Shown here piece after piece: positions 23,886 to 26,695 of a stretch of DNA of 27,946 nt (the stretch's first letter is position 1; the number at the start of each line of letters is the position of its first letter). The notes beneath the pieces are model-generated. The model was not told where the DNA came from and searched no databases. It worked only from the letters and a program-made list of their open reading frames with translations. Made by a program: the position numbers and the translations under genes. Origin of the DNA: Anaerolineales bacterium. GTDB taxonomy: Bacteria > Chloroflexota > Anaerolineae > Anaerolineales > E44-bin32. The DNA lies in assembly GCA_030673085.1 (NCBI GenBank), contig DAOVFE010000001.1:1-27946 (forward strand), in the 5' to 3' direction.

Positions 23886-24248
23886 CTATGTTTGGCCCGA
23901 TTCCAAGTCCTCTAATAAGGCATCAATTATCATTTGAGCGTCATCCAATGGATCTTGTGAGTGAGGAAGGTTGAAACTGTGATTTACTTTAACCGTCAAT
24001 CGCGCCGCAGCTTCCCGAAGCGATGGATCGACTATAGAAAGGTCGCGGAACCATTGCAGTAGATCATAGGCATTAGTCTTAGCTTTCGAACCCATTCGTT
24101 CCCGACCAAAAGCGTTGATCGCAAATCCGGCAGCTCGCCGCGCACAAACCCGCGCCCGGCCTTCTAGCCCTTCCTCCCGCGCAATCTGGGCGTGGTCCAT
24201 TTCAGCTTCGATTGCCTGATTCAATTCTTGCCAATTCATGCTTCCCAT
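23886..24248 (-). CDS. Hypothetical protein, all-helical appearance (about 117-120 aa)
   Basis: Protein-like ORF with the motif EGRARVCARRAAG and a plausible amphipathic helix pattern. The start may be ATG 24239. No family assigned with confidence. Confidence 0.65.
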   Translation of the reverse strand: MGSMNWQELNQAIEAEMDHAQIAREEGLEGRARVCARRAAGFAINAFGRERMGSKAKTNAYDLLQWFRDLSIVDPSLREAAARLTVKVNHSFNLPHSQDPLDDAQMIIDALLEDLESGQT

Positions 24249-24308: not shown

Positions 24309-24358
24309 AGTCCACTGAAAAAACAGCTACTAGTAGAGATTTGAGCTTTTTCCAGTGC
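24309..24358. repeat. Miniature inverted-repeat element copy F
   Basis: AGTCCACTGAAAAAACAGC ... GCTTTTTCCAGTGC, a shortened homologue of the reverse complement of copy D. Confidence 0.6.
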
Positions 24359-24369
24359 AATCATAATAT

Positions 24370-24389
24370 AAAAAACGGCTTACGCCGTC
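24370..24389 (-). terminator. Intrinsic terminator after the sigma/anti-sigma/dockerin unit
   Basis: Minus strand GACGGC-GTAA-GCCGT-TTTTT: short GC stem, GNRA-type loop and U-tract, about 40 nt after the dockerin stop. Confidence 0.55.
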
Positions 24390-24430
24390 ATGCACAAAGC
24401 TATATATCCGTTTTTATAATTAGCTATAAC

Positions 24431-25000
24431 TCATTCTACTTCATGTGATATTTGAGAGTCTTCCGGGAGGACCGGCAGATGATACAAATCCCCCTCAACA
24501 TAACTTATGATATCATTCACATCATCTAAGTCGATGTCTCCATCCCAGACAACATCCGCCTCCGCTTCCTCTGCTGGGGAGAGATCCTCTAAAGCTGCAA
24601 GGAAACGAGACAGCTTAACTGCATCCTGTTGTGTAACCAAGCCATCCTTGTTGACATCACCCGAGGGCAACTCATATAGGGATAGCGGAAGTAGTCCCAG
24701 TTTTCCGTTCGTAAATAAGTCAATCGCCTGAGCGTCAAATCCATCGATCAAATAATCGGCCACGACATTCGCCCTTTCCTTTTGAGGAAGAGTTAACGGA
24801 TGCTGGCCGGCCAAATATTCGCGAATCCATTCAGCATCTAAATATGTTATTTGGCCATCGCCGTTCACATCTCCTATGGAGAGAGAAAGCACAGTCGCTG
24901 TAGCCGTCATCTCTGGGGTTGAAGATATATATGGGGTAGCAGTTCCGCTCGGTTCGGGTGATGGCCCCTCCATTGATGTAGCACTGGGTGGCGGGGTTAC
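24431..25000 (-). CDS. Pro/Thr linker plus two tandem dockerin modules; in-frame continuation of the upstream anti-sigma gene
   Basis: GDVNGDGQITYLDA...ANVVADYLIDGFDA and GDVNKDGLVTQQDA...ADVVWDGDIDLDDV are paired F-hand Ca-binding loops. The frame is open from 25000 (VTPPPSATS-M). No Shine-Dalgarno or signal peptide at the ATG at 24973. Confidence 0.8.
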   Translation of the reverse strand, partial: VTPPPSATSMEGPSPEPSGTATPYISSTPEMTATATVLSLSIGDVNGDGQITYLDAEWIREYLAGQHPLTLPQKERANVVADYLIDGFDAQAIDLFTNGKLGLLPLSLYELPSGDVNKDGLVTQQDAVKLSRFLAALEDLSPAEEAEADVVWDGDIDLDDVNDIISYVEGDLYHLPVLPEDSQISHEVE

Positions 25001-26113
25001 TTAAGGTGTATTTTCTGCAGGCAACGCCGAAGTGACTATGGCAGTTGCATTCTCTTCTGTCTCTTTAGGCGTCATTCCGGGTACAGTTGGTGTCGCTCGA
25101 TTGTTGGCCTGAGTGGAGCACCCTTCCTCAGTCGAATTAAGATCCTGGCTAAGGGATAACGCAGCACTAGCCGCCCGCTGGGTCATGAGAGTCCCATATA
25201 AAGTGGGCAATCCTATCGCACCGGATGGCACTGAAGATTCCCGTATTGCAATTCGCGGTGGTTCTCCTCCAGAAATGTTGCCGCCACTCGCTCTGGCAAT
25301 AGCAATGCTGGTGATATTCAGAACCTCTTGACCATTCTCTACGGTTGACGCAATGTGCTGAGCGCATTCAGGAGATGCTATTGATCGTAGTTTATACAAC
25401 GCCTCCAGATGGTGCTCAATATCCTTTCTCAATGCCAAAAGATCACGGTATTGCATATTTCCGGGCGCGAGCTCTGATGGCAATATAACCTTATCGGATT
25501 CAGATACCCATGAGAATGAGGACACCAACTTGATTAAACGATCAATCGAATGATCATAGTCCATAAGAACCTGATTAATATTTTCGATCCGCCCTGTCGC
25601 TAATAGAGATTGAGTTTCATCCAAACGACGATCGGCCGACTGCGCAAGTAGTTTCGCATCTGTAAATGGTTCCCAAGAGAACAATAGACGAATCTCCTCT
25701 ACGCCTCGCTTGAAAGCAAACAACCCATCGCCGGGCAATGTTTCCCCTGATGCACGAGCAATTTCCACGCATGTAAATATCGCACCTATGCTGGTCAGCA
25801 AGGCAGCGAAGGCATATGCGAAATATCGGATACTGCGACCTTTCGCAGAGCGCTGTTTATCCTTCATGCGCTGCTCCCAGATTACACGTACTCGCTTGAT
25901 GATCCACAGCTTAGCCTTCTTCCGAAAAATCTCGGTCGGAGATTCTGGCTTGAAGCTATTCGTCAATTCAATTGTCAACTTATAATTCAACAATAGATCT
26001 TGGGCATATTCGGGATAGCGCCGAAGGCACTCTTCTATAGTCGTCTGGCCTGATTGGATTTGACTCAGACAACAATCCAAGATTTTTGGCCATGAAGATT
26101 CGTTACTGGGCAT
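25001..26113 (-). CDS. Transmembrane anti-sigma factor, DUF5667-like (RsbN-like)
   Basis: N-terminal ILDCCL...CLRRYPEYAQDL, a basic patch, then TM helix YFAYAFAALLTSIGAIFTCV. This is followed by LPGDGLFAFKRGVEEIRL...ADRRLDE and a P/T-rich tail. ATG 26113 overlaps the sigma 3' end by 11 nt. Confidence 0.8.
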   Translation of the reverse strand: MPSNESSWPKILDCCLSQIQSGQTTIEECLRRYPEYAQDLLLNYKLTIELTNSFKPESPTEIFRKKAKLWIIKRVRVIWEQRMKDKQRSAKGRSIRYFAYAFAALLTSIGAIFTCVEIARASGETLPGDGLFAFKRGVEEIRLLFSWEPFTDAKLLAQSADRRLDETQSLLATGRIENINQVLMDYDHSIDRLIKLVSSFSWVSESDKVILPSELAPGNMQYRDLLALRKDIEHHLEALYKLRSIASPECAQHIASTVENGQEVLNITSIAIARASGGNISGGEPPRIAIRESSVPSGAIGLPTLYGTLMTQRAASAALSLSQDLNSTEEGCSTQANNRATPTVPGMTPKETEENATAIVTSALPAENTP

Positions 26114-26666
26114 CCTTTTTTCCAACCCTTTTTCGCAGGGCGTTTAGCGCGCGATGCAATAGAACCCTTGTTGCGCCCTGGCTTCGTCCCATCCATATTG
26201 CCACTGTTTCGGTTGGTAGTTCGAGAAGAATTCTCAATCTAATGACCTCCTGATAAACAGCCGACAACTCTGATAAAGCCTCCTCAAGCAATTGCATGCG
26301 CTCTGAGTGGATCAGTGTCTCATCTAATGTCCTGATCCGAGCTACTTGCCGATCCGCATCCTCTAGCGGCGCCGTCTTTTTGTACTGGCGATAGTAGTCA
26401 ATAACTGCATTCCGGGCCGACCGATAAAGATAGGCAGAAAAACGCCAGCCCTGATCCTGATATCGATCAAGTGCCTGGAAAACGCGCAAGAATACCTTCT
26501 CAGTCAAATCTTCAGCATCCTCTTCAATAGCGATACGTGATCGAATATAGCGATAAATCAATGCAAGATATCGCTCGTAGAGGTCGCCAAATGCATCGAG
26601 ATCGCCTGCAATTGCCCGTTGAATAAGGTCAATATCTTTCGGATCTTTTTGTTTTTTTTCACTCAT
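26103..26666 (-). CDS. ECF sigma factor, BldN-like
   Basis: Region 2 (GDLDAFGDLYERY...DAEDLTEKVFLR...FSAYLYRSARNAVIDYYR) and region 4 (YQEVIRLR...TVAIWMGRSQGATRVLLHRAL). Adjacent to an anti-sigma gene. Confidence 0.93.
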   Translation of the reverse strand: MSEKKQKDPKDIDLIQRAIAGDLDAFGDLYERYLALIYRYIRSRIAIEEDAEDLTEKVFLRVFQALDRYQDQGWRFSAYLYRSARNAVIDYYRQYKKTAPLEDADRQVARIRTLDETLIHSERMQLLEEALSELSAVYQEVIRLRILLELPTETVAIWMGRSQGATRVLLHRALNALRKRVGKKDAQ

Positions 26667-26667
26667 G

Positions 26668-26695
26668 ACAACGAATCAATGTGGCGAATGTTACG
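26668..26695 (-). promoter_or_regulatory. ECF-type promoter motif CGTAAC-N16-CGTTGT
   Basis: Directly abuts the sigma ATG. Fits the ECF pattern (AAC at -35, CGT at -10, 16-nt spacer). Confidence 0.6.

Follow-up and report, generated by a model that had tools for sequence, protein, structure and literature searches.

An ECF sigma factor locus of an uncultured Anaerolineales genus whose presumed membrane anti-sigma factor carries a C-terminal double dockerin

The window analysed here is the whole stretch of 27,946 nucleotides (nt) of contig DAOVFE010000001.1 (assembly GCA_030673085.1), and the locus under study lies on its minus strand between positions 24431 and 26666. There, a gene for an extracytoplasmic function (ECF) sigma factor overlaps a gene for a membrane protein of the DUF5667 family, whose frame continues through a linker into two dockerin modules. 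Dockerins are protein-docking domains known from cellulosomes. A sequence-only reading of the window had proposed that the dockerins are the sensor of an anti-sigma factor, and each of the parts that it listed was found, in nearly the same place. The source assembly is a 2.33-Mb metagenome-assembled genome (MAG) that is 75.8% complete, about a quarter of the genome being missing. Its RpoB is about 70% identical to those of Anaerolineales and Anaerolinea MAGs, which places the host in the Anaerolineales (Chloroflexota); the uncultured genus is one of marine sediment, and contigs with the locus also occur in cold-seep metagenomes. We consider it fairly probable that the locus is a two-gene operon in which a BldN-like ECF sigma factor is encoded together with its membrane partner, a single-pass protein of the DUF5667 family.

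The sigma gene (26103..26666, minus strand) encodes 187 amino acids (aa) with Pfam matches to Sigma70_r2 at residues 29–97 (E 4.9e-17) and to r4_2 at residues 125–177 (E 4.1e-8). The protein scores 96 bits against TIGR02937, with a cut-off of 42.9, and thus has the domain content of an ECF (group IV) factor; the partner gene, overlapping it by 11 nt, is in the position expected of a cognate regulator. Its top NCBIfam match is the BldN family (TIGR02952), at 115.7 bits and so below the cut-off of 206.45, and its closest solved relative is 6dxo_A, which is BldN in the RsbN–BldN complex (E 5.6e-20). By profile scores, BldN is therefore the nearest family, but the protein is not a member of it. 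The description in the sequence-only reading, a BldN-like ECF sigma factor overlapping its partner gene, is accurate in this sense.

The partner gene starts at ATG 26113, which lies inside the sigma gene, with TTG 26125 as an alternative start. Residues 1–92 counted from the ATG (25838..26113, minus strand) make up a cytoplasmic N-terminal domain, presumed to be the part that binds sigma; the N-terminus holds 17 lysine and arginine residues, consistent with the N-in topology that the earlier reading had assumed. A single transmembrane helix follows at residues 97–120 (25754..25825, minus strand; previously placed at about 25766–25825), where the Kyte-Doolittle maximum is 2.18 at residues 101–119 and the structural model has a helix at residues 94–122. 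The extracytoplasmic helical bundle, residues 125–275 (25289..25741, minus strand), matches DUF5667 (PF18915) with E 7.9e-11 and 42.7 bits against a gathering cut-off of 27; at genome level, the match scores 44.5 bits over 25385–25741. In the model of the N-terminal 290 residues (predicted local distance difference test, pLDDT, 86.4), helices are predicted at residues 8–20, 26–53 and 61–89 of the cytoplasmic domain (pLDDT 86) and between residues 132 and 275 of the ectodomain.

The three predicted cytoplasmic helices, the last one long, resemble the description of RsbN, although there was no fold match to RsbN itself. Fold searches with the N-terminal model returned generic helical bundles only, for which Z values below about 13 are uninformative, and the DUF5667 ectodomain likewise matched only generic helical bundles. 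The partner did not match 6dxo chain B when compared as a single protein (E up to 1) or as a family profile (E up to 10), and RsgI families are absent among its Pfam matches at E up to 1. The pairing of the two genes is conserved: an overlap of 8–17 nt between the sigma and DUF5667 genes recurs in all six paralogous loci read, and DUF5667 is present in 79 out of 79 proteins of an alignment (A2) of the full-length homologue P0001 and its 78 closest representatives. Because of the gene overlap, the N-in single-pass topology, the conserved pairing and the RsbN-like layout, the DUF5667 protein is most likely the anti-sigma factor.

Beyond the DUF5667 domain, a linker of 135 residues (residues 276–410; 24884..25288, minus strand) contains 42% proline, threonine and serine, in agreement with the long P/T/S linker of the sequence-only reading, and leads to dockerin module 1 (residues 411–478; 24680..24883, minus strand; first calcium loop DVNGDGQITYLD) and dockerin module 2 (residues 479–551; 24461..24679, minus strand; first calcium loop DVNKDGLVTQQD). 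Two Dockerin_1 (PF00404) matches, at 24725–24874 and 24497–24661, score 54.3 bits together and 31.3 and 27.1 bits singly, with a cut-off of 22.9; they are the only two dockerins in this genome. Type I dockerins are defined by duplicated calcium-binding loop–helix segments with D or N at loop positions 1, 3, 5 and 12. The first loop is canonical in both modules, while the second loop of module 1 has Y in place of G6. A model of the pair built from 33 homologous segments reached a pLDDT of 86.5, with PDB entries 8x39 and 8x3a as top Foldseek matches, and classical type I single dockerins fit each predicted half with TM-scores of 0.8–0.94 and root-mean-square deviations (rmsd) of 1.1–1.4 Å. By hidden Markov model (HMM) match and predicted fold, the tail is a pair of dockerins. 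The sequence-only reading had described two complete modules in frame, to be checked with HMMER for Dockerin_1 and DUF5667 and to be doubted if no dockerin HMM or structural match appeared; both domains exceed their gathering cut-offs and both kinds of dockerin match were found.

In the window, the frame that joins the anti-sigma gene to the dockerins is interrupted in mid-linker by a TAA codon (25001..25003, minus strand), and the linker runs on unbroken across it. The window allele thus encodes a partner of 370 aa from ATG 26113 (374 aa from TTG 26125), without dockerins. In assembly GCA_030606145.1 (locus L001), which has the same gene order, the homologue P0001 is an uninterrupted protein of 560 aa that is 94% identical and has TCA (Ser) at this codon, a difference of one C>A change. 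We compared the site with contigs from four public metagenome runs belonging to four studies (one of marine sediment, one of sediment and two of cold seeps). At position 25002, the letter of TCA accounts for the entire depth in runs X2, X7 and X8 (20.5/20.5, 3.08/3.08 and 8.37/8.37), and in run X1 the site is a bubble of two contigs, 61 nt each, with depths of 5.7 (TAA) and 5.6 (TCA); since contigs lose rare variants, exact allele frequencies need raw reads. An assembly error as the source of the TAA was rejected, as both alleles occur at about equal depth in run X1. Given the intact relative and the TCA in the metagenome contigs, the TAA is a real, segregating nonsense allele, and the intact 560-aa fusion is the usual form in nature. 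The 560-aa read-through product imagined by the sequence-only reading is therefore encoded by relatives and by most environmental populations, although in the window allele it is cut by the TAA. After the TAA, there are no further stops or frameshifts in the dockerin frame.

The fusion is also present in a sister species of the same genus (genome G001), where a transmembrane helix, DUF5667, a T/S/P linker and two dockerins are encoded in one open frame at a contig start. The two proteins are 34% identical overall, with 42.6% identity in the dockerins (over 141 gap-free residues) versus 30.5% in the transmembrane helix and DUF5667, the dockerins being the best-conserved part. Between the window and L001, the ratio of non-synonymous to synonymous substitution rates is 0.33 for the part before the stop and 0.40 for the dockerins, values drawn from few substitutions. 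The earlier reading had suggested looking for further fusions across Chloroflexota: the tail was found in 2 out of 98 species genomes of the family (24 genera), namely those of the two species of this genus, and in none of the rest. In an exhaustive HMMER search with the fusion protein against 1.84 billion representative proteins, 2584 matches were obtained and the best 150 were sorted. Of these, 78 match the N-terminal 200 residues only; all contain DUF5667, most are 280–360 aa long, and none has a dockerin or any other extra Pfam domain. Another 71 match the dockerin pair only and mostly carry 3–10 tandem dockerins, some together with Flg_new, PG_binding, SLH or S8 domains. The nearest relatives of the pair (P0003, P0011, P0029, P0042 and others) have 5–10 tandem dockerins, and some have Flg_new, PG_binding_1 or SLH. 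Among the best 150, the only protein besides the query P0001 to match both parts is P0006, and each is from this genus; below that rank there could still be a more divergent fusion whose only dockerin scores weakly. Comparison of the sequences indicates that a DUF5667 partner gained a linker of about 135 residues and a C-terminal double dockerin in one Anaerolineales genus, and we are confident that the fusion is real and under selection; what the sequence-only reading had seen in one frame is a conserved gene in relatives, in a second species and in metagenomes. That both species have retained the fusion on a regulator, and conserve its dockerins best of all, suggests a link with regulation.

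In Chloroflexota and Patescibacteria, the usual DUF5667 partners of ECF sigma factors share the N-terminal domain, the transmembrane helix, DUF5667 and the overlap with a BldN-like sigma gene, but they are mostly 280–360 aa long and end in a short proline-rich tail without a dockerin. A close characterized counterpart of the pair is Sigma-BldN/RsbN of Streptomyces venezuelae (PDB 6DXO), BldN being both the nearest solved and the nearest named relative of the sigma factor. RsbN, a class III anti-sigma factor, has about 100 cytoplasmic residues, one transmembrane helix and, outside, a large domain whose function is unknown (PMC6101532), which is the layout of the partner described here, and paralogous systems in relatives of our genome adjoin secreted-protein genes that share a promoter-like motif. 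BldN has been assigned to ECF121, for which an N-terminal pro-sequence extension before region 2 is described (PMC7826278). Unlike BldN, the sigma factor in the window falls below the family cut-off and has no N-terminal pro-sequence, region 2 beginning at residue 29 of 187; its partner has no detectable similarity to RsbN, homologues of which are reported in Streptomyces only and which lacks dockerins.

A functional precedent for the outer end of the protein is offered by SigI/RsgI of Clostridium thermocellum and other cellulolytic clostridia, where a membrane anti-sigma factor carries an extracellular module of the cellulosome toolbox that couples binding outside the cell to an alternative sigma factor (PMC3413522, PMC12484212). 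In contrast to these systems, the sigma factor here is of the ECF type, no RsgI domain was detected, so that the partner does not belong to the RsgI family, and the outer module is a double dockerin rather than a carbohydrate-binding module, PA14 or a glycoside hydrolase, in a host without a cellulosome. A cellulosome would comprise a multi-cohesin scaffoldin and many dockerin enzymes; with two dockerins and no cohesin found in the 75.8%-complete genome, and with RpoB placing the host in the Anaerolineales, the sequence-only reading was right to call it a non-cellulosomal member of the Chloroflexota. The corresponding count in the sister species is one single-cohesin protein and two dockerin proteins in a cassette.

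The tail itself is most like dDoc_0689, the double dockerin of the C. thermocellum S8 protease Clo1313_0689 (PDB 8X39, 8X3A), which likewise contains two complete dockerins; the pair aligns with 8x39/8x3a as one unit of about 140 residues (E 3e-10), at an identity of about 26%. For dDoc_0689, a preference for the cohesin of a cell-bound scaffoldin is reported, and the module is thought to anchor the protease at the cell surface (PMC12484212); a cell-bound cohesin is the likely partner in common. Our tail differs in sitting on a membrane regulator instead of a secreted protease, in its degenerate second calcium loops and in the predicted relative orientation of the dockerins: over the whole pair, the TM-score to 8x39/8x3a is 0.40–0.46 with an rmsd of 12 Å, which leaves the packing between modules uncertain and may be a limit of the model. 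In line with the novelty claimed by the sequence-only reading, the full texts searched, short of ECF-classification supplements and the double-dockerin paper, describe no dockerin-bearing anti-sigma factor, and none of them mentions DUF5667. The dockerin-bearing anti-sigma factor may thus be a new architecture, though it may already have been catalogued.

The sequence-only reading had looked to a cohesin encoded elsewhere in the genome; none was found in this one, and the sister species has a cohesin protein with an SLH-like anchor. In G001, a cassette (L016, G001:C198, 4666–8618) encodes two proteins with C-terminal dockerins, one of them with repeats suggestive of a beta-helix, and then the cohesin protein P0152. 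This protein, of 363 aa, has a signal peptide, one cohesin domain and three SLH-like repeats; its SLH match is sub-threshold (E 0.05), and the repeats would serve as an anchor. Of 41 relatives, 12 have a cohesin, and every one of these has dockerins too, usually in neighbouring genes; none of the 25 dockerin-less genomes has a cohesin, and 4 of the 16 dockerin-bearing relatives show none. Dockerins were detected in 85 of the 201 Anaerolineae genomes searched. Since cohesin and dockerin genes co-occur in relatives, the lineage has a small non-cellulosomal cohesin–dockerin system, and we lean slightly towards the view that the dockerins of the fusion bind a cohesin.

Small non-cellulosomal cassettes, in which one or two secreted proteins that end in a dockerin adjoin a single-cohesin protein of about 360–440 aa, recur across the family (G003:C33, G012:C44, G015:C237 and C35, G016:C148, G018:C101, G005:C103 and G022:C78). 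In the genome of the window (G000), at least six large proteins end in the C-terminal repeat module seen in P0152, a stretch of about 200 residues that comprises three Cys-containing repeats with the pattern F-x-D-V-P ... W-A ... Y-T-A-G-C ... C-P, weakly SLH-like (C24:2862–3440, C424:166–774, C267:1986–2564, C54:3908–4540, C450:9082–9696 and C474:1287–1826); one carrier has a metallophosphoesterase domain. The shared module, which escapes recognition by Pfam, probably anchors its carriers in the cell envelope. In-frame stops inside SLH-like proteins proved to be only natural gene ends.

A promoter-like motif of the ECF type, CGTAAC-N16-CGTTGT, occupies 26668..26695 on the minus strand and ends 1 nt before the sigma ATG, where it may act as a promoter. 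The core GTAAC-N16-CGTT also lies directly ahead of an ATG at the sigma genes of L001 and of five paralogous loci (L004, L005, L006, L009 and L011). In its longer form, (T/C)GTAAC-N16-CGTT, the motif ends 1–3 nt before an ATG at the sigma gene in seven loci including the window (window 26664–26695, minus strand; L001 9420; L004 899; L005 2697; L006 893; L009 899; L011 2657); a transcript that starts at the usual distance after the -10 element would exclude that ATG. In L005, the motif-proximal ATG is out of frame with the sigma open reading frame (ORF), whose start codon is a GTG 13 nt beyond it. A divergent second copy precedes secreted-protein genes in L005 (2738, plus strand), L006 (750, minus strand) and L009 (825, minus strand), which are likely direct targets of the sigma factors in these loci of related genera. 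The divergent copies lie 48–96 nt upstream of genes for related secreted proteins, with a signal peptide and a conserved Cys-containing N-terminus. The window has no divergent secreted-protein neighbour of this type. In its genome, GTAAC-N16-CGTT occurs at 8 sites compared with about 18 expected by chance, and no other site precedes a convincing target. The control of envelope genes proposed in the sequence-only reading is not borne out by the motif search, which found no target genes in this genome.

A terminator-like hairpin, GACGGC-GTAA-GCCGTT followed by a T-run (24364..24389, minus strand), is a consensus match only; the hairpin proper (24389–24374, minus strand) lies 42 nt past the stop of the dockerin ORF, so the hairpin noted earlier after the dockerins is indeed there. 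At the T-run (window 24369), contigs of other runs have 1 or 3 extra A, and the spacer 24337–24430 contains many substitutions, the intergenic region being more variable between populations than the coding region. Downstream lies a conserved gene of 120 aa (23886..24248, minus strand), also found in L001 and the sister species, which may or may not belong to the module. The homologue in G001 (L003) has 117 aa and follows the fusion gene. The 120-aa protein has no Pfam match, and resembles small HEPN/PaREP1-like proteins by language-model features only (scores 0.87–0.89), which we note as a lead. The gene order SDR, sigma, fusion gene, 120-aa gene and transketolase is common to the window and L001.

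The explanation that fits best, and to which we attach a reasonable degree of confidence, is a sigma/anti-sigma operon with a docking tail. In such a system, the cytoplasmic N-terminus would hold sigma at the membrane and the linker would carry the dockerins outward through the wall, where, with calcium, they would bind a single-cohesin protein anchored in the wall, such as P0152 in the sister species. Cohesin binding would tie the anti-sigma ectodomain to the surface layer, and docking, or its loss, might alter the stability or cleavage of the anti-sigma factor and hence the release of sigma. Topology, linker and dockerin fold can be counted as results within this scheme. A sensor role of the dockerins is plausible. 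That dockerin–cohesin binding gates sigma activity is possible though doubtful, and the more specific version, in which cohesin–dockerin engagement is itself the signal and the anti-sigma factor reports whether a cohesin protein anchored in the wall has hold of its dockerins, is a tentative proposal that we think rather unlikely to be correct.

Several results weigh against this scheme. Neither sequence nor fold links the cytoplasmic domain to any known anti-sigma domain, which leaves sigma binding to be argued from context. In the sister species, no sigma orthologue was found, the best matches being paralogues that are 35% identical; its contig begins inside the fusion gene, which leaves the place of a linked sigma gene outside the assembled sequence. 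Neither Pfam nor a profile of the cohesins of relatives (best E 0.95) revealed a cohesin in the 75.8%-complete genome. Position 3 of the second calcium loops is V or I, and neither N nor D occurs there in either species. In one population the truncated allele makes up about half of the depth, which shows that cells survive without the tail. Finally, the cohesin cassette of G001 has no copy of the promoter-like motif ahead of it, and neither a regulon nor a regulatory link to that cassette could be derived.

Some of these results would sit well with a tether or scaffold that does not signal, in which the dockerins hold the protein, or a cohesin-bearing surface protein, at a point of attachment between the membrane and the wall, and control of sigma runs through the DUF5667 ectodomain as in relatives of about 310 aa. 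The 78 closest family members among the best 150 matches lack any additional domain and can be presumed to signal without a dockerin; the role proposed for dDoc_0689 is to anchor its protease on the cell surface and not to sense (PMC12484212); and the truncated allele persists in a natural population. However, any membrane protein could serve as an anchor, whereas here the fusion is kept on a regulator in two species with the dockerins best conserved, and we regard a mere tether as unlikely. It is also conceivable that the dockerin-like modules bind a ligand other than cohesin or serve only as calcium-binding modules. Many non-cellulosomal dockerins have no known partner, and the failure to find a cohesin in this genome and in 4 of the 16 dockerin-bearing relatives, the degenerate second loops of both modules and the occurrence of dockerins in 85 of 201 Anaerolineae genomes all fit this possibility. 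Yet cohesin and dockerin genes co-occur and adjoin in 12 relatives, the sister species among them, and the dockerin fold and the first loops are canonical, which makes a non-cohesin function quite improbable.

Two further explanations treat the tail as something other than a working part of the protein, and both are poorly supported in view of the cross-species conservation and the read data. If the tail were a recent accretion in decay, with the TAA as the first step of pseudogenization and functionless dockerins, its confinement to one genus (2 out of 98 family genomes) and the segregating nonsense allele would be accounted for; but the tail is intact in three of the four populations and in a species that is only 34% identical overall, its dockerins are the best-conserved region, and nothing after the TAA has degenerated into stops or frameshifts, so that decay is very improbable. 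We give practically no credence to two separate genes or to programmed read-through of the TAA. An ATG does occur nine codons after the stop, and gene callers report the leftover 180-aa ORF (ATG 24973; 24431..24973, minus strand) as a separate protein, P0002, in the representative library. This ORF has no signal peptide, though, and the linker crosses the stop; read-through, recoding and two genes were all rejected, the site being a plain C/A polymorphism.

The known sensors of anti-sigma factors bind small molecules, misfolded proteins, lysozyme or polysaccharides. The fusion has a narrow distribution, in one uncultured genus, but the case is highly testable, because the modules are small and of a kind that expresses well in other systems, the sister species supplies a candidate cohesin, and nature supplies a tail-less allele. 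If the proposed docking mechanism is true, the ECF sigma factor would be freed whenever the surface layer was absent, damaged or unoccupied, which would amount to a docking checkpoint for envelope assembly, and the natural TAA allele would be a locked-state variant. A dockerin sensor would make the state of a protein–protein docking site on the cell surface an input to transcription, and cohesin–dockerin pairs would gain a regulatory role outside cellulosomes.

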